NCBI GenBank assembly: GCA_030549845.1
Contig: JAUQQN010000004.1
Span: forward strand, 6,760-38,759
Source of the DNA: Patescibacteria group bacterium
Lineage (GTDB): Bacteria > Patescibacteriota > Minisyncoccia > UBA6257 > HR35
Length of the DNA: 32,000 nt
Reading direction: 5' to 3'
Shown here: positions 2,123 through 27,167 of the stretch, piece after piece
Layout of the letters: each line of letters begins with the position of its first letter
Numbering within the stretch: the first letter of the stretch is position 1
The notes under the pieces: model-generated
Database searches by the model: none
What the model saw: the letters and a program-made list of their open reading frames with translations, nothing else
What the model was told of the DNA's origin: nothing
Position numbers and translations under genes: made by a program

Positions 2123-3375
2123 TTTTCAATTTTTTCAATTTTTGCTCCTATTTTTTTCAATTTCTCTACCAAATTTTCGTATCCTCTCTCTATTTTCTCT
2201 GCTTCATAAATTATTGTTTCTCCTTCTGCAATTAAACCCGCAATTACTAACGCTGCACCAGCTCTTATATCCAAAGATCTTATTTCCTTTCCTTTTAGTG
2301 CTGATGGGCCTATGATTAATGCTCGGTGAGGATCTAAAATTTCTGCATTTGCTCCCATATAAACTAATTCATTTATATAAGAAAATCTATTTTCATACAT
2401 CCAATCATGAATCAAAGTAACTCCTTCAGCTTGAGTAGCTAAAGCTCCAAATGGTGGTTGTAAGTCTGATGGAAATTTCGGATATAAACCAACCTGGATC
2501 TTTGTACTTTTTAAATTGTTATTTTTATAAATTTTAATTTTTTTATCAAGAACTTCGTACTTAAAACCCATTTCCTTCATAACAATAAATACAGAATCTA
2601 ATTCATATGGATTTATATTTTTTATTAGTAAATTACTTTTAGTTGCTCCTGCTAAAGCTATAAAAGTACCTGCTTCGATGGGATCTGGAGGGATTTTGAA
2701 TTCTACTTTTTTTCTAAAGTTTTTTGGACCCACGATTTCTAAAAATGGAGTTCCTATTCCTTTTATTTTTACACCTAATTTTTGCAAAAATTTACAAACG
2801 CTTACTACACTCGGTTCTGTTGCAGCTAATCTTATTTTAATTGGTTTAGTACTAAATGCAGAAAAAAGAAGTAAAGTTTCTGTTGCTGTTACGCTACTTT
2901 CTTTTAAAATGACTGTATCATTTTCTAATCTTTTAAATTTACCAGTTAAAACCTCACCAGAAGAAAATTCACATCCTAATTCTGAAAGAGAGTTTAAATG
3001 AACATTTATTGATCTTGCTCCAATTATATCTCCCCCTGGTCTTGCAATTTTAATTTCATGAAATAATCCAAGCAGTGGACCTAATAAAACTATTGAAGCT
3101 CTAAGCTTTTTAACTTCTTCTATATTCAAATCTTTGTTTTTAATCTGGGAGCTATCTATAATTAACTTATTATTTTCCCATATCACTTTACAATTTAAAT
3201 ACTTTAAAATATCTAAAAGCCAAAGTACATCTAATATTTTGGGTACATTGTATAAAACATTAATCCCTCTATTTATTAAACTTCCAGCGATAATTTTTAA
3301 GGCTGTATTTTTAGATCCTGATACTTTTATTTCTCCTTCTAATTTTCTGCCTCCTTTAATTACTAAAATGCTCAT
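2119..3375 (-). CDS. murA: UDP-N-acetylglucosamine 1-carboxyvinyltransferase MurA (Asp at the active-site Cys position)
   Basis: 418 aa. The N-terminus is LVIKGGRKLEGEIKVSGSKNTALKIIAGSL. The active-site loop RPGGDIIGARSINVH aligns to E. coli LPGGCTIGARPVDLH. Confidence 0.92.
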   Translation of the reverse strand: MSILVIKGGRKLEGEIKVSGSKNTALKIIAGSLINRGINVLYNVPKILDVLWLLDILKYLNCKVIWENNKLIIDSSQIKNKDLNIEEVKKLRASIVLLGPLLGLFHEIKIARPGGDIIGARSINVHLNSLSELGCEFSSGEVLTGKFKRLENDTVILKESSVTATETLLLFSAFSTKPIKIRLAATEPSVVSVCKFLQKLGVKIKGIGTPFLEIVGPKNFRKKVEFKIPPDPIEAGTFIALAGATKSNLLIKNINPYELDSVFIVMKEMGFKYEVLDKKIKIYKNNNLKSTKIQVGLYPKFPSDLQPPFGALATQAEGVTLIHDWMYENRFSYINELVYMGANAEILDPHRALIIGPSALKGKEIRSLDIRAGAALVIAGLIAEGETIIYEAEKIERGYENLVEKLKKIGAKIEKIEN

Positions 3376-11592: not shown

Positions 11593-12116
11593 TATCTTTT
11601 ATGCCATTGAGGTGCCCTTCTTGCTTTTTTGAGTCCATACTTTTTTCTTTCTACTTCCCTTGAGTCTCTAGTTAGATAACCTGCTTTTTTAAGCTTTGGC
11701 CTCCATTCCGGATTTAATTTTACTAAAGCCCTAGCTAAACCTAATTTAATCGCATCTGCTTGGCCATGTAATCCCCCACCTTTTACCTTTACAGTAACTA
11801 AATAATGTTTAAATAATCTTAACTTCCTAAGCGGAGCATCTACTATTTTTTGCAAATACAATACAGGAAAATATTCAGTATAAATTTTACCATTAACATA
11901 AATCGGTAAGGTTTCTTTTGTAGTATTTTGCCAAATTCTTACTCGTGCAATTGCTTCTTTTCTTCTCCCTATTCCTTCAATATATCTTCCTTCTTCAAGT
12001 TGGGGAACATTCTCAACAATTTCTTTTTCTTCAGTTTTTTTCTCTTCTTCAATTTCAAATTCTTTTAATTCTTTTTCTTCAACTTCTTCTAATGTATCTA
12101 ATTTTTGTTCTTCCAT
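11592..12116 (-). CDS. rpsI: 30S ribosomal protein S9 with a ~45-aa acidic/lysine-rich N-terminal extension
   Basis: The core reads GRRKEAIARVRI ... GGGLHGQADAIKLGLARAL ... LTRDSREVERKKYGLKKARRAPQWHKR. The first ~45 residues are an E/K-rich low-complexity tract. Confidence 0.92.
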   Translation of the reverse strand: MEEQKLDTLEEVEEKELKEFEIEEEKKTEEKEIVENVPQLEEGRYIEGIGRRKEAIARVRIWQNTTKETLPIYVNGKIYTEYFPVLYLQKIVDAPLRKLRLFKHYLVTVKVKGGGLHGQADAIKLGLARALVKLNPEWRPKLKKAGYLTRDSREVERKKYGLKKARRAPQWHKR

Positions 12117-12528: not shown

Positions 12529-14190
12529 ATGAAAAAAGAAATGGAGAGTAGAATATTGCAAGAAATTAAAGAAAAATTAGACATTGTAGAATTTATAGGT
12601 GGGTATGTAGAGTTAAAAAGAGTAGGAAGTTATTATAGGGGTTTATGCCCTTTTCATCAAGAAAGAAACCCCTCCTTTTTTGTATCTCCAGAAAGACAGA
12701 TGTTTAAATGCTTTGGGTGTGGAGCAGCTGGTGATGTAATTACTTTCTATATGAGAATCGAAAATCTCGAATTTAAAGAAGCTGTGGAAAGATTAGCTGA
12801 AAAATTAGGCTTAGAACTTGATATTTCTCAAAAAGAAACAGACTTTCAAGAGATCAAAAAAATCCTAGAAATTAACCGGATAGCCCTAAACTATTATAAA
12901 AAAACCTTGAAAGATGTCAAGGAAGCTTTAGATTATTTAAAAAAACGAGGATTAAAAGATGAAACTATAGAGTATTTTGATTTAGGTTATGCAAATGAAG
13001 GTAATTTCTTAAGAGACTTTTTGCTTTCCTTGGGTTATGATATAGAAGAAATTCAAAAAGCAGGGCTTTTAAATGAAAAGAGGGAAGATAAGTTCCAATC
13101 CAGAATAATTTTTCCTTTGATTGACATTGATAAAAAAATCGTTGGTTTTACCGGAAGAAGCTTCCCAGAAAAAGAAAGGGCTCCAAAATATTTAAATAGC
13201 CCTGAAACAATTTTATTTAAAAAATCTAGGTTTATTTATGGACTAGTTTATTCTAAAGATTATATCCTCAAAGAAAAAGAAGCAGTTATAGTGGAAGGAC
13301 AATTTGATTTTATACTTTCCTTCCAGAATAATCTAAAAAATTGTATTGCTGTATCTGGTTCTTCTTTGACAAAAGAACAGCTTCAAATTCTAAAAAAATA
13401 TACAAACAGATTAGTATTAGGATTTGATAACGATGACGCTGGTTTTAAGGCCTCCCTAAGGGCAGGTCTTTTGGCATTAGAATCTAAATTTGAAATATAT
13501 AAATTGATATTTGATCCTTACAAAGATTTAGCTGAATTTTTTGAAAATCAAAATACAATAGAAAACTTAAAGAAGGTGCCTTTCATTGATTATCTTTTTG
13601 ACTACATTGAAAATAAATTCGATCTTAATGATTTAGATAACAAAAGAAAAGCTTTAAATTTAATACTTCCATTTCTTAAATACTTAGACGTAGTTGCTTC
13701 TTCATTTTATATCAATAAGCTTTCACTTTTATTAAAAATAAAAGAAGATTTTATAATAAATGAATTAAATAAAGTACAAATAGAAGTCCAAGAGGAGCCA
13801 GAAACTCAAGTTTCTTATTTCACTAATAGATTGTTTGATTTAATAGAAAAATTTGTTGCTCTTTCAAAGCTTTTAAATAAAGAAGAAGAAAAGGAAATAT
13901 TGCTAAGGGAGATGGATTATGAGTTTAGGGAATATTTTGAAGAAATAGAGTTCAATGAAGAAAAGCAAGATATATTACGATTGAGAATGTTATATGAAGA
14001 ACTTAATACTTCTGATTTAGAAAAAGAATTTAAATTTATCCAAAAGGAAATTCTAAAGGAATACTACAAAAATAAAATAAATTATTATAAGGAGCTCATA
14101 AATAATATAAATCCTGAAGATTTGGAAAATTTATTAAAACAAGTAAAATTTTATACAGAGAAATTAAAAATACTAGAGAAAAATGCCTAG
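12529..14190 (+). CDS. dnaG: DNA primase DnaG
   Basis: The zinc-ribbon motif is CPFHQERNPSFFVSPERQMFKCFGCGAAGDVITF. The TOPRIM motifs are VIVEGQFD and LGFDNDDAG. I chose the start at MKKEMESR (12529); the ATG at 12541 is also possible. Confidence 0.92.
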   Translation: MKKEMESRILQEIKEKLDIVEFIGGYVELKRVGSYYRGLCPFHQERNPSFFVSPERQMFKCFGCGAAGDVITFYMRIENLEFKEAVERLAEKLGLELDISQKETDFQEIKKILEINRIALNYYKKTLKDVKEALDYLKKRGLKDETIEYFDLGYANEGNFLRDFLLSLGYDIEEIQKAGLLNEKREDKFQSRIIFPLIDIDKKIVGFTGRSFPEKERAPKYLNSPETILFKKSRFIYGLVYSKDYILKEKEAVIVEGQFDFILSFQNNLKNCIAVSGSSLTKEQLQILKKYTNRLVLGFDNDDAGFKASLRAGLLALESKFEIYKLIFDPYKDLAEFFENQNTIENLKKVPFIDYLFDYIENKFDLNDLDNKRKALNLILPFLKYLDVVASSFYINKLSLLLKIKEDFIINELNKVQIEVQEEPETQVSYFTNRLFDLIEKFVALSKLLNKEEEKEILLREMDYEFREYFEEIEFNEEKQDILRLRMLYEELNTSDLEKEFKFIQKEILKEYYKNKINYYKELINNINPEDLENLLKQVKFYTEKLKILEKNA

Positions 14191-19322: not shown

Positions 19323-21608
19323 CTATTTTACAACAAAGCTTTGGGTAAAATTTGGAAGAGGAGGCTTTTTTATTTTTTGCCATTTTTCATCAGTAAGCCG
19401 ATCTCTCATCGGATGTTTAAATTCATAATATGAGAAAATTGGGCCAGAGGTTAAATATAATTCACCGCCATCTTTTACCACTACTAATAAATTTAGAGGT
19501 TTCCCGATCGCTTCTTCCAGAACTTGAAATGTATTGCTATCTGTATGAACATCTGCGATGATTTCCATTTTTGTATCTGTTTCTGAAGCAATTTCTTTCA
19601 TTTCTTTTATAGAAAAACTAACCAAATTTTCAAGGATGTGACCTATATTTTTAATAAATTCGTAATCATCCTTTTCTAAATCCTTATTCGTTAATTCTTT
19701 TTCAGATATTGTCTTTAGGGTCAAAAGAATTTCTTCCATTTTTGTAAGTTTGTATTTGTATTCAGAGCTTAACAAATTTCTCGATTCTAATCCTTCTCGC
19801 ATGAATTTTGCTAAAGAAGCAAGCCGAGCGTATACTTCAGGATTAGGTTCTACATAGCCACGGTCTTTTACTGGAGGCCCTGGCTCGAATTCTATAGGCG
19901 AAAGAATTTCCCTAATAGTATAACTTTGTTTTGCATAAAGAATTGTATCATGTCGCAGTTCTGTCCAAGAACCTAAAAATGAATTTAAATCTTTATCCAA
20001 CCAAGCAGCTTGTCGCATAAATATTGGATAACCTTTACCTTTCACTGTAAGTGTCGGCAAAAGTGAATACAACCAATTCCAGTATAAATTTTCCACCCAT
20101 TTGTTTTGTGGAAGTGATGAAAATTCTTGTCTAAGTTTTTGAAACTGCTCGTTATATCCATAAAAAGCAGAATCCCCTTCTCTATCAAGAATTTCTTTTG
20201 CTCTTTTTGAACCTAAAACTGCAGCAACATCTAAGCCTCTAGGAAAAGCTCTAACGGTTTGAAGTCCGATTGTTTCTGCTGTAAATGGCTGTGGCTCAGT
20301 CCCAATGTAATCTTTTACATTTGGAAAAACAAGTTGATGAAATATATAAGAATCTGGAACAAAACGTTGTCCCATAAAACGAAAACCTTTAGTTGCCTCA
20401 GTAGGATCTTCTGTTTTTAGAACAAATGAAGAGAAAATTTTAGGACCTAGTAATTTTTTAAGTTCGGCAATTACTTGATCAATTTTTCTATCGTCGGCAA
20501 GACTATTAACAGATATGTTTTCTCCAAAAACTTTTTTCATTACATTAAAATAATCATAAACATTAAAATCATCTGTTTTACCTACAAAAAAACTAGTAAC
20601 TTGGTAAATTCTATCCCAAACCTTTAATGCATCTTCTTGATTAACTTTCGCCTGTTTAAGCATTAATGAAATCAATAAGGCTTGACGTGTTTCTTCTTGT
20701 GAAGTAATTCTAAACCTCATTCTCCCATACCACATCATTGTTTTAAAATACTTTTTGAAATCTTCATTTCGAGTATAATGCCCGCGTGGGATATATTGAC
20801 TGTAATCTTCTATATAGCCAAAAATAGGAGAATATTGAAAGCCTTCATGTTTATCAATTAAACTTAACTCTTTCTCCACAATATTTTTAACATCAGCTGG
20901 AACTGAAGTTTCTGGTTCAAGTAACTTTGAAGCGACCGCAAAATAAGCGACATTTTTCCTAGCGGCAGATTTCAGCTTAGGATCAGTAATGCTATTATAC
21001 TGATTTATAGCTGTTTGTAGTAATACTTTGTTTAAGTTTTTTAAATCAGGTATAAATTTATTTAACTCTATATTTCGCAAAGTGTAATCATAAAGAATAT
21101 GGAAAGCATGTAAAACAGAATCAATGGTAACAAAATTTGGTCGACCATTTTCGGTGTTGTCCTTATAAATAGAATAAATTTCATCATATTTAGTTGGTAT
21201 TGCAACAAAACCTTGTTTTATCAACTTTTGTTTAACTTTGTTGCTTAGATTAAATTTTTGCCTATTCTTAATTTTATTCCAATTTACTGGTAGGTTATAG
21301 GAGTCAGCATTTGGAATTATGTCTACAGTATATGGTTTATATTCAGCAAATTCTGTTAAAATCGTAGATTTTATAGAAATCGGTTGTTCTGTCTCAATCA
21401 ATTCAGCTGATTGGTATAGCTCAGGTGATTGTTGGTTACTTTTGTTACGATAAAAGAAGGTAAGAATAGTTATGGTGATAACACATAAAATACTAGTAAT
21501 AATCAAAATTTTTTTCTTAGCTTTTAGCTTTGATATCACAGAGGAGTTTCGATAATTTTCTTGCAAAGGCTCGTTTGGTTTATGCGGATTAAAATTTTTA
21601 TCATCCAT
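19323..21608 (-). CDS. Large membrane-anchored extracytoplasmic protein of unknown function (possibly DUF3160-like)
   Basis: 761 aa with a single N-terminal TM segment (KILIITSILCVITITILTFF), then a long, non-repetitive soluble region. The length and motifs such as PRGHYTR and MWYGRM remind me of DUF3160. That is recollection only. Confidence 0.4.
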   Translation of the reverse strand: MDDKNFNPHKPNEPLQENYRNSSVISKLKAKKKILIITSILCVITITILTFFYRNKSNQQSPELYQSAELIETEQPISIKSTILTEFAEYKPYTVDIIPNADSYNLPVNWNKIKNRQKFNLSNKVKQKLIKQGFVAIPTKYDEIYSIYKDNTENGRPNFVTIDSVLHAFHILYDYTLRNIELNKFIPDLKNLNKVLLQTAINQYNSITDPKLKSAARKNVAYFAVASKLLEPETSVPADVKNIVEKELSLIDKHEGFQYSPIFGYIEDYSQYIPRGHYTRNEDFKKYFKTMMWYGRMRFRITSQEETRQALLISLMLKQAKVNQEDALKVWDRIYQVTSFFVGKTDDFNVYDYFNVMKKVFGENISVNSLADDRKIDQVIAELKKLLGPKIFSSFVLKTEDPTEATKGFRFMGQRFVPDSYIFHQLVFPNVKDYIGTEPQPFTAETIGLQTVRAFPRGLDVAAVLGSKRAKEILDREGDSAFYGYNEQFQKLRQEFSSLPQNKWVENLYWNWLYSLLPTLTVKGKGYPIFMRQAAWLDKDLNSFLGSWTELRHDTILYAKQSYTIREILSPIEFEPGPPVKDRGYVEPNPEVYARLASLAKFMREGLESRNLLSSEYKYKLTKMEEILLTLKTISEKELTNKDLEKDDYEFIKNIGHILENLVSFSIKEMKEIASETDTKMEIIADVHTDSNTFQVLEEAIGKPLNLLVVVKDGGELYLTSGPIFSYYEFKHPMRDRLTDEKWQKIKKPPLPNFTQSFVVK

Positions 21609-21625: not shown

Positions 21626-23452
21626 TTAAATATGATCTCTATTAAAAACTTCTGAATTCAAAATTTCTTCAAATTTTTCAAAAGGCAAATCTCCCAAATC
21701 TCCTTCTTTATGTTTTCTTACAGAAATTTTATTTTCAGATATTTCTTTATCGCCTATGATGATCATATAAGGTATTTTTTCTTTTTCTGCTTTTAGTATT
21801 CTCTTTGATAATGTTTCATCTGGTTCCCAGATTTCAACCCTAAAATTGTCTTTCAACTTGTAAAGAATTTTTTTTGCATAATCCATGTGTTTATCATTAA
21901 TCGGTAAAATAACTATTTGTATAGGTGCTAACCATAAAGGAAAATCTCCGCCATAATTTTCAATTAACAAACCGAAAAATCTTTCAATTGATCCCAAAAG
22001 CGCTCTATGAATCATAAATGGTGTTTTTGCTTTTCCATCTTTATCAACATAAGTGATATCAAATCTTTTTGGTAAATTAAAATCTAATTGAATCGTTGAA
22101 ATTTGCCAGGTTCTTCCTAATACATCTTTTACTTTTATGTCTATTTTGGGCCCATAAAAAGCTGCTTCACCTTTCATTATTTTATATTCCCAGCCAGTTT
22201 TTTCTATTGCTTTTTTTAACGCATTAATAGCAAATCTCCAATCTTTTTCTGATCCTAAATAATCTTTTTTCTTAGCAGGATTCCATATGCTTAGTTCTAC
22301 AAAAAATTCTTTAAATCCAAATTTTTCTAGGACATATTTTACTAAATTAACACAATTTAAAATTTCTTCTTCTAATTGTTCTCTAGTGCATAAAATATGA
22401 CCATCATCTTGAGTAAATCCCCTAACCCTTGTAAGCCCTGATAAAGTTCCTGATCTTTCATATCTATAAACTGTACCAAGTTCTGCATATCTTATTGGTA
22501 AATCGCGGTAGCTTTTAGGAGAGTTTTTATAAATCATTAAATGAAACGGGCAATTCATTGGTTTTAGATAGTATTTTTCATTTTCGATATCAATTGGAGA
22601 GTACATATTTTCTTTATAAAAACTTAAATGCCCTGATGTCTCAAATAAAGTTTCTTTTGCTATATGTGGAGTAAATACTAATTGATAACCATTATTTTTA
22701 TAAGTTTCGATAACAAAATCTTGGATTATTTGCCTAATTATCCCTCCTTTGGGAAGCCATAAGATTAAACCAGCACCAATTAATGGATTCGTAGTAAAAA
22801 GCCCTAATTCTTCACCTAGTTTTCTATGATCTCTTTTTTCAATTTCTTCTTGAAGCTTAAGATAGTTCTCTAATTCTTCTTTTGTTTTAAAAGCAATTCC
22901 ATAAATTCTAGTAAGCATTGGATTATTCTCATTTCCTCTCCAATAAGCTCCTGCAATTTTTACTAATTTGAAGCCATCTAGGGGTATTTCTCCGCTTCTT
23001 TTAACATGGCCTCCTTCGCATAAATCAATAAAATCTCCTGACTTATAAATTGTTACTTTTTTTATCTTTTTAGGTTTTTTCTTTTTTGTTTTAATCTCTA
23101 TTATTTCATCATAATCTGTTGTTCCATATTTTTGAAGATCATTTAAAAGTTCAATCTTAAAAGGTTGTTTCAATTTTTTAAATAAATTTTTTGCTGATTT
23201 TAAAGAAATTTCTTTTTTTTCAAATTTAATGTTTGCTTTAATCAATTCTTTGATACCATTCTCTAAATCCTGAAGAATATTCTCATCAATTTTTTTTGAA
23301 AATAAAATATCATAATAAAAGCCATTTTCAATAACAGGGCCTACACCAAATTTTGCTTTTGGATCAATTTTAAGAGCAACTGTTGCTAAAAGATGAGCTA
23401 ATGAATGCCTTATTTTGTATAAATCATCTAATTTCCTTGAAGATTTAACCAT
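21626..23452 (-). CDS. thrS: Threonyl-tRNA synthetase lacking the N-terminal TGS domain
   Basis: 608 aa. It begins directly at the editing/second-additional-domain motif (IRHSLAHLLA). Class II motifs are present (YRDLPIRYAELGTVYRYERSG; GFTQDDGHIL; GEAAFYGPKID). An anticodon-binding domain forms the C-terminus. Confidence 0.92.
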   Translation of the reverse strand: MVKSSRKLDDLYKIRHSLAHLLATVALKIDPKAKFGVGPVIENGFYYDILFSKKIDENILQDLENGIKELIKANIKFEKKEISLKSAKNLFKKLKQPFKIELLNDLQKYGTTDYDEIIEIKTKKKKPKKIKKVTIYKSGDFIDLCEGGHVKRSGEIPLDGFKLVKIAGAYWRGNENNPMLTRIYGIAFKTKEELENYLKLQEEIEKRDHRKLGEELGLFTTNPLIGAGLILWLPKGGIIRQIIQDFVIETYKNNGYQLVFTPHIAKETLFETSGHLSFYKENMYSPIDIENEKYYLKPMNCPFHLMIYKNSPKSYRDLPIRYAELGTVYRYERSGTLSGLTRVRGFTQDDGHILCTREQLEEEILNCVNLVKYVLEKFGFKEFFVELSIWNPAKKKDYLGSEKDWRFAINALKKAIEKTGWEYKIMKGEAAFYGPKIDIKVKDVLGRTWQISTIQLDFNLPKRFDITYVDKDGKAKTPFMIHRALLGSIERFFGLLIENYGGDFPLWLAPIQIVILPINDKHMDYAKKILYKLKDNFRVEIWEPDETLSKRILKAEKEKIPYMIIIGDKEISENKISVRKHKEGDLGDLPFEKFEEILNSEVFNRDHI

Positions 23453-23943
23453 TCTTTTAATTCTTTAATTTGGCTATCATTTAATATTTTATATTCTTCA
23501 ATAAGATTTAAAATAATTTTATAATCATTTTTAATAAATTCAAAATTTATTTCATGAAACCTTCTTAATTTGTCTATTAATAAAAATATTTGTTCGCAAA
23601 ATTCGAAAAGGTATTTTTGAGCTTTTTCTTTATTGTAAGCATTATTTAATTCTTCTCTTACTTCTAAAAGTACCTCTTTTAAGTTTTGAAGGTCTAATCT
23701 TCTTATAGGAACTTGATTTACAGCTTCATTGGTTTTTCTATATGTTATTAATTCAAAAATTTCTTTTATTTTCATCCCTTTTTCAGTTATTTTAAAAAAT
23801 CTTAAGCAATATCCAACTTCTAAATAATTTTCTTCTTGAATAGTTTTAACTTCTATTTTTAATGACAATCTTCTGTTATTTATCTTTAATTCAAAAGGCT
23901 CTACTGTATCCAAAAATGGTTTAAATTCTGGATGTTTTCTCAT
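23428..23943 (-). CDS. Hypothetical protein
   Basis: 171-aa ORF on the same strand as thrS, overlapping its start by 25 nt. No recognisable motif and no SD. Confidence 0.45.
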   Translation of the reverse strand: MRKHPEFKPFLDTVEPFELKINNRRLSLKIEVKTIQEENYLEVGYCLRFFKITEKGMKIKEIFELITYRKTNEAVNQVPIRRLDLQNLKEVLLEVREELNNAYNKEKAQKYLFEFCEQIFLLIDKLRRFHEINFEFIKNDYKIILNLIEEYKILNDSQIKELKEWLNLQGN

Positions 23944-23957
23944 AAAAAAATTTTAGC

Positions 23958-24004
23958 AAAATAAAATTGGCCGGGTGCAGCCCCCATCTCTCTTGCCCCC
24001 GGCC
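23958..24004 (-). terminator. Intrinsic terminator-like hairpin plus U-tract following the mini-ORF
   Basis: The minus strand reads GGCCGGG-(22 nt, with an extra GCA/TGC pairing)-CCCGGCC followed by AATTTTATTTT. The hairpin starts 10 nt after the mini-ORF TGA. Confidence 0.55.
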
Positions 24005-24014
24005 CACCACTTTC

Positions 24015-24122
24015 TCATCTCTTCTTTCTTTGTTTTCTTTTGCGGGCGGTTGACTTCAGTCGCCCGCAATTTTGGCACCTACCATTTCGGTAGGTGCCTT
24101 TTTTACACCGCTTACACTTCAT
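24015..24122 (-). CDS. 35-codon mini-ORF encoding a basic CxxC-x9-CxxC zinc-ribbon-like peptide (MKCKRCKKGTYRNGRCQNCGRLKSTARKRKQRKKR); alternatively part of a structured RNA or leader
   Basis: Hand translation of the reverse complement of 24015..24122. It is preceded by GGAAGGAGGTGGG (a perfect AGGAGGTG SD) 7 nt upstream of the ATG. It is too short for the supplied ORF track. The coding region contains a perfect 10-bp hairpin (24074..24098) and a 7-bp GC hairpin (24042..24067). It is about 45% GC by my count, versus a very AT-rich surrounding. Confidence 0.45.
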   Translation of the reverse strand: MKCKRCKKGTYRNGRCQNCGRLKSTARKRKQRKKR

Positions 24123-24156
24123 TTTATCCCACCTCCTTCCTCTAGAGTAACATTTA

Positions 24157-24186
24157 ATTATATAATTTTTCCCTTTTTTGTGTCAA
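24157..24186 (-). promoter_or_regulatory. Consensus sigma-70 promoter TTGACA-N18-TATAAT
   Basis: The minus strand reads cTTGACAcaaaaaagggaaaaattaTATAATtaaatg. The -35 is at 24181..24186, overlapping the TGA stop of the upstream membrane-protein gene. The -10 is at 24157..24162. Both hexamers match the consensus exactly. Confidence 0.65.
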
Positions 24187-25043
24187 GAGTTTTTTGGTAT
24201 ATTTTGAAGATATTTTGTCAAAAGACCTAAAATAGGAAGATATGTTGTTATTATTCTGTAATATATTAAAGAGAACAAAAATAATGTTGGATTATAACCA
24301 AGATAATAAACATAAAGCAAAGATAAGCCTTCACTCACTCCTGTACCATATAAAAATGGAAATATAGAAGATATTATTACCCAAATTAAATAGGCTATAA
24401 AAGAATCCATGAGTTTAACCCCTGGTAAAAATATAACGTTACTTAAATAAAAAAGATAAAAACTTAAACTTTCTATTAAAAAGGTTATTAATAGTAATTC
24501 TAGAAATTTATAAACTTCGATATTTCTAAAAAATTTTCTTTTTATGATAAATGAAAAAATCAATATTAATAAAAATAAAACTGATGGTAAAAATATTTTA
24601 AAAATCAAAAAAACTAGAGAAAAAAACAAAAATGAGCCTAAAAATACAAAATATGTATAAATTAAATAAGAAAGTGAGGCTCTTCTGCTTTCAGATTCTA
24701 GATTAATTATAGGAGATATAGGGCCAAAAGGAGAGAAAAGTCTTTTTGTGTGAATTTTAAAATACAAGTATGAAGATTGAATTAAATTTTTTTCAAGATC
24801 CAAAATTTTAAAAATTTTGTACCACAATAAAATATGCAATAAAGTAATTGCTAAAAATATTAAAATTGAAGAAATAAGGTAAGTTGAATTAAATAAAAAA
24901 TAATTTTTAAATGAAAATAGTTCAATTAAATATCTATCTTCTATTTCTTTCAACTTATAAATTAAAAAAATTACAAAAATAAAAACAAAGATATTTTCAA
25001 TTAATAATAAAATAGTTAAAATACTATTTTTATTGATTTTCAT
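24183..25043 (-). CDS. Polytopic integral membrane protein, unknown function
   Basis: 286 aa with about 8 hydrophobic segments. No catalytic motif recognised. Confidence 0.55.
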   Translation of the reverse strand: MKINKNSILTILLLIENIFVFIFVIFLIYKLKEIEDRYLIELFSFKNYFLFNSTYLISSILIFLAITLLHILLWYKIFKILDLEKNLIQSSYLYFKIHTKRLFSPFGPISPIINLESESRRASLSYLIYTYFVFLGSFLFFSLVFLIFKIFLPSVLFLLILIFSFIIKRKFFRNIEVYKFLELLLITFLIESLSFYLFYLSNVIFLPGVKLMDSFIAYLIWVIISSIFPFLYGTGVSEGLSLLYVYYLGYNPTLFLFSLIYYRIITTYLPILGLLTKYLQNIPKNS

Positions 25044-25047
25044 TTTA

Positions 25048-25365
25048 TTAGTCTTTTATTTGATAGGTTCGGGCAGCGAATATAAAATATTTTAACCAAT
25101 TTTTTAATTTTTCTTCATCTTCTTTATTAGTGATCTCAATTGAGCTTAAAATTTCTTCATATATTGTTTTAATCTCTTCATTTTCAGAAGGCGTAGGGAT
25201 ATAAAGGCCTTTTATTTCAATTTCTTTTTTTCTTATTTTTTCAAAAAGCTCTAATAAGGCCTCTTTAAATTTTTCTAAATTTTTTATTGTACAACAATTT
25301 TTAGCTGATTCTATTGCTTTATTAATAAATTCATCTTTTGTCAAAGGCTCTATTTTTTCTTTCAT
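25048..25365 (-). CDS. Hypothetical acidic helical protein
   Basis: 105-aa ORF, E/K-rich. It is co-directional with, and 4 nt upstream of, the membrane-protein gene. Confidence 0.4.
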   Translation of the reverse strand: MKEKIEPLTKDEFINKAIESAKNCCTIKNLEKFKEALLELFEKIRKKEIEIKGLYIPTPSENEEIKTIYEEILSSIEITNKEDEEKLKNWLKYFIFAARTYQIKD

Positions 25366-25385
25366 TTTAAAATAATATTATAACA

Positions 25386-27167
25386 ATGGAAGGATATTTA
25401 AACAAAATAAGAAATTTTGCAATTATAGCCCACATAGATCACGGAAAATCCACTCTAGCTGATAGATTTCTAGAAATTACAAATACTATTCCTAAGGAGA
25501 AATTGATCCCCCAATATTTAGATAGATTATCTTTAGAAAGAGAAAAGGGTATAACTATTAAAATGCAACCAGTAAGAATGTTATATAATGGCTATATTCT
25601 AAATTTGATAGACACCCCAGGACATTCTGATTTTTCTTATGAGGTTTCAAGAGCTTTATATGCTGTTGAGGGAGCAATTCTTTTAATCGATGGTACACAG
25701 GGAATTCAAGCTCAAACTGTTTCAAACTTAAATATAGCTCAAGACCTTGGAATTAGAATAATTCCAGCTATTAACAAAATTGATTTGAACATAATAGAGA
25801 TTGATAAATTAGTAAATGACATCCAAAATCTTTTAAGAACTAAAGATATAAAAATTCATTTAATATCAGCAAAGCTTGGTACAGGAGTTAATGAACTTTT
25901 AGATACTATCATAAAAGAAATTCCAAAACCAAAAATTTTGTCTGAAAAACCTATTGCTTTAATTTTTGACTCACACTTTGATAAACATAAAGGTGTTATT
26001 GCTCATATAAGAGTTTTTGGTGGTGAGTTTAAAAAAAATGAAAAATATTACTTAAAAGCCGTAGGTTGTCAATTCAAAGCCTTAGAAGTAGGATATTTTA
26101 CGCCTGATTTAAAAGAAGCTGACGCCCTAAGAGCAGGTGAAATAGGTTATATTGCTACAGGAATAAAAGAACCAAATATCATAAAGATAGGAGATAGCAT
26201 AACCAAAGATATGAATCAAGAAGCTATTCCAGGTTATAAGGAACCTCAGCCTGTAATTTTTGCTTCGGTTTTCCCCTCAGAAGAGATTTCTTATGAAAAA
26301 TTCAAAGACAATGTTTTTAAATTACAATTAAATGACCCAGCAATCAAATTAGAAAATATAAATTCTCCTGTTTTTGGAAGAGGTTTTTTAATTGGCTGTT
26401 TAGGTTTATTACATCTTGAAATCTTTCAAGAAAGACTTAAAAGAGAAATGGAAACAGAAGTTATCTTAACAATGCCGTCAATAAAATATAAAGTTATTTT
26501 AAAAAATGGAAAAGAAATTTATATACAAAATCCAAAGGATCTTCCTGATGCCTCACAAATTCAAGAAATTCAAGAGCCTTGGGTTAAGGTTTTTATTTAC
26601 TCTCCATTTACATATATTGAAGATATCTATGAATTATTAAAAACTAAAAGAGGGATGATTTGTGGACAAAAAATTTATGAAGGATTTTTAGAAATTGAAG
26701 GAGAACTTCCTCTAGATGAATTAATTACAGGATTTTTTGACAAATTAAAATCGGTAACTTCTGGATATGCTACATTAAATTATGAATTTTTAGAATATAG
26801 AAGGGGAGATCTTGTTAAGTTAGATATCTTGATAGCAGAAGAGATCAATCCTTCGCTTTCAAGAATAGTTGTAAAAAATAAGGCAGAAGAAATAGGAAGA
26901 AAAATTTTAATTGAGCTAAAAAATTCTTTACCAAGAGAACAATTTCCAATTAAATTACAAGCTGCAATTGGGGGGAAAATAATCGCAAGAGAAACAATTC
27001 CTGCTTTAAAAGCTGATGTTGCTGGTTGGCTTTATGGAGGAGATATAACTCGAAAAATTAAATTATGGCAAAAGCAAAAAAGGGGTAAAAAGAAATTACA
27101 AAAATTGGGCAAAGGAAAAGTACGAGTTCCTAATGAAGTTTTAATAAAAATTTTTAGAATCTATTAA
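25386..27167 (+). CDS. lepA: Translation elongation factor 4 (LepA)
   Basis: 593 aa. The GTPase motifs are IRNFAIIAHIDHGKSTLADR, DTPGH and NKID. The LepA-type C-terminal region is present (GGDITRK.KL...QK.GKK). Confidence 0.93.
   Translation: MEGYLNKIRNFAIIAHIDHGKSTLADRFLEITNTIPKEKLIPQYLDRLSLEREKGITIKMQPVRMLYNGYILNLIDTPGHSDFSYEVSRALYAVEGAILLIDGTQGIQAQTVSNLNIAQDLGIRIIPAINKIDLNIIEIDKLVNDIQNLLRTKDIKIHLISAKLGTGVNELLDTIIKEIPKPKILSEKPIALIFDSHFDKHKGVIAHIRVFGGEFKKNEKYYLKAVGCQFKALEVGYFTPDLKEADALRAGEIGYIATGIKEPNIIKIGDSITKDMNQEAIPGYKEPQPVIFASVFPSEEISYEKFKDNVFKLQLNDPAIKLENINSPVFGRGFLIGCLGLLHLEIFQERLKREMETEVILTMPSIKYKVILKNGKEIYIQNPKDLPDASQIQEIQEPWVKVFIYSPFTYIEDIYELLKTKRGMICGQKIYEGFLEIEGELPLDELITGFFDKLKSVTSGYATLNYEFLEYRRGDLVKLDILIAEEINPSLSRIVVKNKAEEIGRKILIELKNSLPREQFPIKLQAAIGGKIIARETIPALKADVAGWLYGGDITRKIKLWQKQKRGKKKLQKLGKGKVRVPNEVLIKIFRIY

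Follow-up and report, generated by a model that had tools for sequence, protein, structure and literature searches.

A GC-rich island upstream of thrS in a member of the Patescibacteria is probably a fast-evolving gene for a four-cysteine mini-protein with a hairpin-rich messenger

The cassette upstream of thrS

In the stretch of contig JAUQQN010000004.1 analysed here (32,000 nt, hereafter the window), which derives from a Patescibacteria group bacterium with an AT-rich genome, a short GC-rich island lies between the gene of a multi-pass membrane protein and a 171-amino-acid (aa) open reading frame (ORF) that leads into thrS. A preliminary description, made from the sequence letters, had singled out this island for its composition, for a consensus promoter followed by a perfect Shine-Dalgarno (SD) sequence 7 nt before the ATG of a 35-codon ORF with two CxxC knuckles, for two hairpins within that ORF, and for a terminator hairpin 10 nt beyond its TGA. 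All of these hold up position by position, and the GC content of the island, in 100-nt windows, is 46–51% vs ~20–30% in the flanks. With a probability of roughly 0.7, we conclude that the island is a genuine gene, encoding a 35-aa, very basic mini-protein with four cysteines on an mRNA that is selected for hairpins, and evolving fast. The parts of the unit, referred to below as the cassette, are as follows.

24157..24186 (-): sigma-70-type promoter; -35 TTGACA at 24186..24181, spacer of 18 nt, -10 TATAAT at 24162..24157
24123..24150 (-): predicted 5' untranslated region (UTR) of ~28 nt, with a conserved TACTCTA element and the SD
24140..24128 (-): SD sequence GGAAGGAGGTGGG; core AGGAGGTG at 24137..24130, 7 nt before the ATG at 24122
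24015..24122 (-): mini-ORF of 35 codons; ATG at 24122, TGA at 24017..24015, product MKCKRCKKGTYRNGRCQNCGRLKSTARKRKQRKKR
24074..24098 (-): hairpin 1, a perfect 10-bp stem GGCACCUACC-GAAAU-GGUAGGUGCC, encoding G9-C16
24042..24067 (-): hairpin 2, GCGGGCG...CGCCCGC, encoding C19-R27
23958..24004 (-): intrinsic terminator; stem GGCCGGG/CCCGGCC at 24004..23969, then the T-run AAUUUUAUUUU to 23958

Since a 35-aa peptide is too short for protein searches, relatives were gathered via the neighbouring genes. A search with thrS led to loci L005 and L006 (a third locus, L004, starts inside thrS and is uninformative), alignment of the upstream membrane protein of ~285 aa led to L051–L053 in metagenomes, and homologues of this membrane protein, together with exact look-ups, led to L054–L070. 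The window ThrS is 80–87% identical to proteins from Candidatus Pacebacteria and Paceibacter metagenome-assembled genomes (MAGs) (Paceibacteria, Patescibacteria). The order LepA(-), a small ORF of 105–122 aa, the ~285-aa membrane protein, the cassette, an optional ORF of 165–171 aa and thrS is held in L005, L006, L051–L062 and L067–L070, with the small 105–122-aa ORF missing in L055. Syntenic loci extend down to ~40% identity of the membrane protein, and the cassette is built alike throughout, with a promoter and an SD ahead of the small ORF and a GC hairpin plus T-run behind it. L063 and L065, two deeper Parcubacteria MAGs, carry the membrane gene, an AT-rich spacer of ~150 nt and thrS without the cassette, which therefore appears to be a lineage-restricted insertion. 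Viral contigs, searched with two of the relatives, gave no match.

The promoter scores 12 of 12 and is the top-scoring site, and the only one with a full score, within 23000..25500; perfect TTGACA-N16-18-TATAAT combinations occur twice in the whole window, against 0.01 expected from shuffled sequence. It overlaps the upstream gene, the TGA of the membrane-protein gene (24185..24183) lying within the -35 hexamer, and the position of the -10 would place the start of transcription near 24150. At the equivalent position, CTTGACA together with TAAAAT or TATAAT is kept in L005, L006, L051, L052, L053 and L056–L062; L054 and L055 have TTGACA without the leading C, and L055 is without a clear -10 hexamer. 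The SD stands out within the window, most genes of which had been described as having a weak SD or none: not one of the 23 ORFs of at least 150 aa is preceded by an SD-like motif (of 4 nt or more). Scanning the window for an SD combined with a start codon returned 10 other sites, all of them 5-nt motifs with TTG/GTG starts or located inside other genes or a tRNA, so that the mini-ORF is the sole site in the window with the full AGGAGGTG ahead of an ATG. A purine run resembling an SD is retained ahead of the small ORF in every relative. Downstream, a GC-rich hairpin with a T-run follows the small ORF in all relatives, with stems that vary in sequence and keep their complementarity (GGGCGGTGG/CCACCGCCC in L006 and L052, GGGCCGTGG/CCACGGCCC in L005, AGCCGGG/CCCGGCT in L055).

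Constraint and variation among relatives

The mini-protein has the layout CxxC-x9-CxxC followed by a Lys/Arg tail, and a net charge of ~+15. Peptides of the same type are encoded in L062 (MKCKRCKKGAYRNGRCWRCGRLKSTARKRKQRKKR), L056 and L058 (MKCKRCRTGTYQFGRCQNCGRLKSTARKAARKKIEKRNQKKKR), L057 and L059 (MKCKKCKKGTYQFGRCQNCGRLKSTARKAARKKIEKRNQKKKR), L001 (...GTYRNGRCQNCGRLKSTARKKLKKIKKK, on a contig truncated at the 5' side), L054 (MARCKKCGSENTYVNGQCKVCGR..., where the contig ends within the ORF) and L055 (MRCKRCGGVYDNGRCNECGRLKSSARRR..., 83 aa). The frame, the four Cys, Y11, G14 and CGRLKS[ST]AR, as well as the ATG and the SD, are kept in L001, L054–L060 and L062, as far as the contigs extend (L001 spans only the second Cys pair, and L054 and L060 are partial); C3, C6, C16 and C19 are invariant in the window, L062, L056–L059 and L055, and in the partial L054 and L060, with Cys codons switching between TGT and TGC among alleles and orthologues. 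The alignment of relatives that the preliminary description had proposed as a check on frame and Cys codons comes out in favour of a peptide, with a Cys-free form in a syntenic variant in L052 and L068 (see below). The window and L055 differ at 27 of 78 aligned nt (35% divergence), and 19 of 26 residues are identical; nine codon changes are synonymous and seven non-synonymous, and the changes include multi-base switches (Ser TCA>AGT and Arg CGC>AGA). In the region of hairpin 2 the window differs from L001 at three positions (CGA CTG to CGG TTA), all synonymous. The sole alignable length difference is a 24-nt in-frame insertion in L056 and L057, a partial duplication of the ...CCGCCCGCAAA segment. 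The Lys/Arg tail is swapped between alleles, and is always open and always basic; that of L001 has one codon more and is too divergent to align. Retention of the frame and the Cys, the synonymous switches and the in-frame insertion are not what a fortuitous ORF in a non-coding RNA would show.

A single-sequence AlphaFold2 prediction of the mini-protein is moderately confident (mean predicted local distance difference test score of 79.7); it places short beta bridges between the two knuckles and makes residues 26–34 helical. Foldseek found no relative of this model, and neither Pfam (above cutoff) nor NCBIfam matched the window peptide. A profile of the window-type peptides had no match in the PDB, and a homologue search with the peptide doubled into a 70-aa query returned no candidate. 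The zinc-ribbon miniprotein of the preliminary description is supported as regards the ORF, the SD, the ATG, the conserved four Cys and the coding-type substitutions, and finds no counterpart among curated zinc-ribbon models.

At the same site other relatives carry longer proteins. A syntenic family of 70–78 aa (L005, L006, L051 and L070; P0004, P0005, P0017 and P0044 from an exhaustive profile search; also P0001 and P0002) has an N-terminal MJ0042-/LysW-like zinc ribbon, a basic run, and a C-terminal Y[IV]NGGx[LMI]KxR[RH]. The L005 protein matches MJ0042_CXXC (TIGR02098) weakly, with 21.6 bits at a cutoff of 20.9, and the L006 protein falls below cutoff against LysW-like and FmdB models. L052 (3383..3487) and L068 (~2389..2493) encode a 34-aa Cys-free variant, MGK[SR]KGGKKGKM[RW]GPRYINGG[LP]MKQ[AT]SRPRPPKR, made up of the basic run and YINGG; it has been called as a gene only in L068 (P0058). 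Three competing hand alignments can be drawn between the window-type and the longer proteins (TYRNGR/YINGG; NCGRLKSTAR/NGGPIKNCRR, at the nucleotide level; NGRCQNCG/EGECKKCG). As sequence homology is not established, we claim only positional orthology with the longer proteins, on the strength of the shared site, promoter and terminator type.

The codons of the mini-ORF, which had looked uncommon by eye, prove to be so when tallied. GC content at third codon positions is 0.51 vs 0.175 in 18 long ORFs of the window, and the codon log-likelihood is -50.7 vs -26.5 +/- 4.1 for the same peptide at genome usage, i.e. ~6 standard deviations below, with 0 of 5000 draws as extreme. Recent horizontal acquisition is an unlikely source of these GC-rich codons, since the GC-rich cassette stands at the same site in all lineages. 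The minus-strand RNA of the island folds with z = -5.0 relative to dinucleotide shuffles. When synonymous codons were permuted within each ORF, holding the peptide and the codon set constant, the native coding sequence gave z scores of -4.7 (window), -3.7, -4.8, -4.4, -2.8, -3.3, -4.1 and -5.3 in eight of nine homologues, and -1.7 in the ninth. These scores, along with the persistence of GC-rich rare codons, show that the arrangement of codons has been selected for hairpins, as the preliminary description had suspected.

The hairpins themselves are less constant than the tendency to form them. Hairpin 1 is found once in the window and is built with the rare codons GGC, ACC and TAC; of the five substitutions in its stem in the alleles L062, L056 and L057, four preserve pairing through G-U, which holds for the mRNA strand alone, and the remaining one disrupts the top pair. 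The stem of hairpin 2 is 11 bp and perfect in L062, L056 and L057, closing an AAAU loop, and 10 bp in L001, where the loop is longer; in the window hairpin 2 carries the synonymous changes CGG>CGA and TTG>CTG, two of which break pairs. Both hairpins are absent from L055, and hairpin positions and sequences shift between lineages. In the longer relatives, hairpins lie over the second zinc knuckle in registers that differ between L005 and L006, and a conserved stem AACGGCGG/CCGCCGTT extends over the NGG codons to RR-stop (L005 3620..3660, L006 3350..3382, L051 1968..2002, and L070). The bases of this last stem are shared with the C-terminal peptide motif, and the stop codon lies within it. Given that the hairpins are without positional conservation, generic selection for a compact, stable mRNA is indicated rather than selection for a specific RNA motif, and we read this as mRNA-structure selection that sits on top of a dominant protein-level constraint.

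Between closely related strains, the cassette is hypervariable. Compared with L056, L057 and L062, the flanks of the window differ at 0–6 positions per 100 nt and the segment from the 5' UTR to the terminator loop at 20–39 per 100 nt, with sharp edges at the -10 and the terminator stem; divergence of the cassette is ~10–30 times faster than that of the flanks. At least five alleles exist, and two of them were recovered identically from two independent samples each (L056 = L058, L057 = L059). The cassette is the most divergent segment among the longer relatives too. Three independent Logan contigs break in the island (L001 starts at ~24099, L002 starts at ~23989, and L003 ends at ~24138), as would be expected where breaks coincide with allelic variation between strains; a repeat or mobile element behind the breaks was considered and rejected, as hairpin 1 is single-copy in the window and the breaks track the allelic variation. 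Positive selection on the protein alone is insufficient to account for the pattern, given the strong divergence at synonymous sites as well. Allele exchange or local hypermutation probably lies behind it, candidate routes to the latter being template switching in quasi-palindromes and transcription-associated mutagenesis. Diversification by a diversity-generating retroelement was also set aside: substitutions fall on other bases besides adenine, and the window holds hairpin 1 only once (a broader repeat search was not made). In a comparison of L052 with L068 (around L052 3295..3574), divergence changes from ~0.2% upstream of the cassette to ~3% downstream, a step suggestive of a recombination boundary there; a duplicated TTTTTCAATTTATAATT segment follows the terminator in the same comparison.

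Neighbouring genes and translation initiation

The features around the cassette, and a second perfect promoter elsewhere in the window, are the following.

24183..25043 (-): 286-aa multi-pass membrane protein, upstream of the cassette; LPG_synthase_TM (MprF-type) match with E = 3.3e-4, below cutoff
23428..23943 (-): 171-aa ORF, downstream of the cassette, overlapping the start of thrS by 25 nt
23941..23955 (-): possible own -10 of the 171-aa gene, TAAAAT at 23955..23950, 6 nt before its ATG at 23943
19323..21608 (-): 761-aa DUF3160 protein (E = 6.7e-215), directly 3' of thrS
12893..12920 (-): second perfect promoter, TTGACA-N16-TATAAT, antisense within a 553-aa plus-strand ORF that starts at 12529

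Pfam has no match to the 171-aa ORF, and the patterns used to search GTDB species genomes turned up no relative; an ORF of 147–171 aa occupies the equivalent position in L006, L051, L052 and L068, and not in L005, L055 or L067. A TATAAT-like hexamer stands 7–9 nt ahead of the corresponding ATG in L006, L051 and L052. If TAAAAT is indeed the -10 of the 171-aa gene, its mRNA would be leaderless and independent of read-through from the cassette, although a -10-like hexamer is weak evidence, such motifs being common in AT-rich DNA. The DUF3160 gene stands where infC-rpmI-rplT commonly follow thrS. The second perfect promoter lies ~770 nt upstream of a minus-strand 174-aa ORF that starts at 12116.

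Many long ORFs of the window have a TATAAT-like hexamer directly before the ATG (e.g. 12529, 15332, 17037 and 25386), which suggests that initiation in the window is mostly leaderless or SD-independent. In a published survey, an anti-SD motif was present in only 48% of Parcubacteria (PMC9297842), and the leaderless or SD-independent genes of the window would fit this frequent loss; a literature search yielded no paper directly on how Patescibacteria use SD or leaderless starts. In the cassette, the conserved GGAGGTG may be either a rare SD-led exception or an element with another role, the 3' end of the organism's 16S rRNA lying outside the window.

Interpretation and relation to known systems

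The island is best described as 'coding and structured'. In the explanation that we favour, it would form a monocistronic minus-strand transcription unit of ~190 nt (a consensus promoter, a short leader, a strong SD, the 35-codon ORF and an intrinsic terminator) that is transcribed and translated in vivo, probably strongly and with an abundant product. The two CxxC knuckles would together chelate one zinc ion, the Lys/Arg-rich C-terminal tail is predicted by AlphaFold2 to be helical, and the mini-protein may act inside the cell on nucleic acid, be it RNA, the ribosome or DNA. The GC hairpins, formed from rare codons in a genome of 28% GC, may shield the short mRNA from RNases, tune its translation, or both, and the cassette outpaces its neighbours in evolution yet keeps its Cys scaffold.

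Several observations weigh against this explanation. Hypervariability at the strain level is unusual for a housekeeping nucleic-acid binder. As the Cys-free variant of L052 and L068 indicates, the zinc site is not essential across the clade and is dispensable in at least one lineage. Comparison of the window-type with the 70–78-aa proteins by hhalign gave a probability of 16.8% over 16 columns, so homology between them is not established. With no Pfam, NCBIfam, PDB or Foldseek match, it is the CxxC pattern and the charge that point to zinc binding and nucleic-acid binding. The window peptide and its alleles, looked up exactly, are not on record among ~15 billion predicted proteins; no gene caller has ever picked up the ORF. 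Finally, the SD of the cassette may not act as one, since the long ORFs of the window use none and some Parcubacteria are without an anti-SD.

A dual-function RNA, in which the ~190-nt transcript encodes the mini-protein and also acts as a structured regulatory RNA or protein-binding decoy (e.g. in autoregulation by its own basic product, or in titration of an RNA-binding factor), is the most probable of the alternatives, and we regard it as unlikely. It would account for the excess of structure over synonymous permutations in eight of nine homologues, for the persistence of GC-rich codons across lineages of an AT-rich genome, and for the four of five substitutions in the stem of hairpin 1 that leave G-U pairs on the mRNA strand alone (the top pair being lost to the fifth); the size of the transcript and its promoter/terminator layout also resemble those of a small RNA (sRNA). 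The hairpins are, however, not conserved between lineages (L055 is without both), which generic structure selection fits better, and hairpin 2 of the window tolerates two pair-breaking synonymous changes. Nor did we find an identifiable target or partner, or a match in Rfam: at gathering thresholds the whole window yields four tRNAs only, permissive filters over 23850..24300 give at best 26 bits vs a gathering threshold of 52 (NmsRb, on the plus strand) and 18.8 vs 50 (ylbH), and nothing was found at the cassette in eight related loci, in line with the preliminary description, which had recognised no Rfam family. A plus-strand sRNA or terminator, with hairpin 1 followed by TTTTTT in an NmsRb-like layout (the 26-bit match), was considered and rejected, there being no plus-strand promoter; we put its terminator-like appearance down to chance, as the T-run corresponds to two AAA Lys codons and is gone in the L056 allele (CGA ACT).

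A bolder version, to which we give a low probability, would make the cassette a hypervariable 'coding plus structured RNA' module, in which the hairpins of the ORF are functional (e.g. as autoregulatory sites for its own zinc-knuckle product, or as quasi-palindromes that drive template-switch mutagenesis) and alleles are kept by balancing or diversifying selection in inter-organism conflict, such as that of an episymbiont with its host or with phage. If true, Patescibacteria would have a fast-diversifying mini-gene of a new kind, and SD-led initiation, seemingly unused elsewhere in the genome, would chiefly serve this gene.

Less probable still is a conflict-related or secreted effector, i.e. 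a cationic, Cys-rich, diversifying peptide (antimicrobial, host-directed, anti-phage or anti-defence) for which the adjacent MprF-like membrane protein might serve in export or immunity. The net charge of ~+15 and the sub-cutoff LPG_synthase_TM match of the upstream gene (E = 3.3e-4) agree with such a role, as do the contrast of 20–39 vs 0–6 differences per 100 nt between cassette and flanks, the at least five alleles with two each identical in two samples, the Logan contigs that break in the island and the lineage-restricted distribution. No signal peptide, leader or processing gene accompanies the ORF, however, and CxxC motifs in pairs usually mark zinc sites in the cytoplasm. The strong divergence at synonymous sites favours allele exchange or local hypermutation over simple positive selection, the membrane protein belongs to the conserved core and its gene occurs in L063 and L065, where the cassette is missing, and relatives in viral contigs were not found.

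The preliminary description had also proposed an attenuator, in which translation of the mini-ORF up to its stop would mask the 5' arm of the terminator and set read-through into the 171-aa ORF and thrS. This we now consider very improbable. The cassette does lie directly upstream of these genes, with no obvious strong promoter between the terminator and the next ATG, and the distance from stop to stem is 10–12 nt in the window, L006, L051, L052, L056 and L062. That distance is, however, ~26 nt in L001, ~27 nt in L005 and ~46 nt in L055, and ~300 nt separate the cassette from thrS in L005, L055 and L067. The peptide sequence itself is conserved, unlike that of regulatory leader peptides, and there is no run of Thr codons, only two isolated Thr that are themselves replaced (T10 by Ala in L062 and by Val in L055, and T25 by Ser in L055). 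Moreover, thrS occurs without the cassette in L063 and L065, the -10-like hexamer 6–9 nt before the downstream ATG in four lineages would give a separate, leaderless mRNA, and no antiterminator pairing was seen in minimum free energy or centroid folds, which were not supplemented by a dedicated search. The least probable reading of all, an unclassified non-coding sRNA with a fortuitous ORF, draws on the GC island with its three hairpins, the minus-strand z of -5.0, the atypical codon usage, the fact that the ORF was never called as a gene and antisense frames that are stop-poor too, but fails as an exclusive reading because the frame, start, SD and four Cys survive a nucleotide divergence of 35%, synonymous switches of several bases and an insertion that keeps the frame, and because the hairpins are without positional conservation and the best Rfam score is 26 bits vs a gathering threshold of 52; what stands of it is selection at the RNA level.

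Our verdict on the four-cysteine mini-gene is that it represents a new, unannotated and fast-evolving family among the tiny zinc-finger proteins, and neither a new class of element nor a regulator of thrS. Small unannotated zinc-finger proteins are common, which makes this a modest rather than a major finding. The gene is nevertheless probably abundant in its product and has been missed by standard annotation, in a phylum that is known chiefly through annotation. A GC-rich, hairpin-dense island in an AT-rich genome would usually be classed as an RNA gene, and here it appears to be protein-coding as well, so that 108 nt under both protein and RNA-structure constraint offer a compact natural test case of overlapping selection. 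The hypervariability, the breaks in metagenome contigs and the sole full SD of the window also raise questions on translation initiation and strain diversification in Patescibacteria.

Among known systems, the zinc-ribbon ribosomal proteins bL32, bL33, bL36 and zinc-type uS14 are likewise tiny, basic and CxxC-containing, and are strongly expressed. They are near-universal and evolve slowly, whereas the gene described here is hypervariable and limited to a sub-clade, with L063 and L065 lacking it; ribosomal protein models do not match its peptide. The dual-function sRNAs SgrS/SgrT, RNAIII/hld and SR1/SR1P are also short and structured, with their own terminator and a small ORF, and sRNAs that encode small proteins are surveyed in PMC5521070. 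In the cassette, by contrast, the structure lies within the ORF and not beside it, and we identified no base-pairing target or chaperone.

The likeness to the ribosome rescue factors ArfA and BrfA is one of gene architecture only, i.e. a small, fast-evolving protein with an intra-ORF stem-loop. Arf rescue factors bind the ribosome through basic C-terminal regions. The KKKKGGSY of the longer relatives is reminiscent of the KGKGSY of ArfA, which we take as a lead and no more. ArfA did not appear in Pfam scans with E up to 1, and BrfA and ArfT were not compared directly. According to PMC8012679, ArfA, BrfA and ArfT are small (40–72 aa) and fast-evolving, and arfA and brfA carry a stem-loop or terminator within the ORF. 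In the window the hairpins inside the ORF precede A-rich sequence rather than a U-tract, and hence would not terminate transcription; for RNase III, stems of 10–13 bp are short, and the ORF ends in an ordinary stop codon ahead of a separate terminator. Unlike the mini-protein, Arf proteins are not known to have zinc knuckles.

The one-domain zinc-finger micro-proteins (haloarchaeal C(P)xCG, and MJ0042-type, FmdB-type and LysW-like proteins) are likewise very small, carry two CxxC knuckles and are often unannotated; those of Haloferax are described in PMC6562870. The window peptide matches none of the MJ0042, FmdB and LysW models. Its knuckles are spaced by 9 residues and not by ~17, and to the shared plan its gene adds a long Lys/Arg tail, a hairpin-dense mRNA of rare GC-rich codons, and hypervariability between strains.

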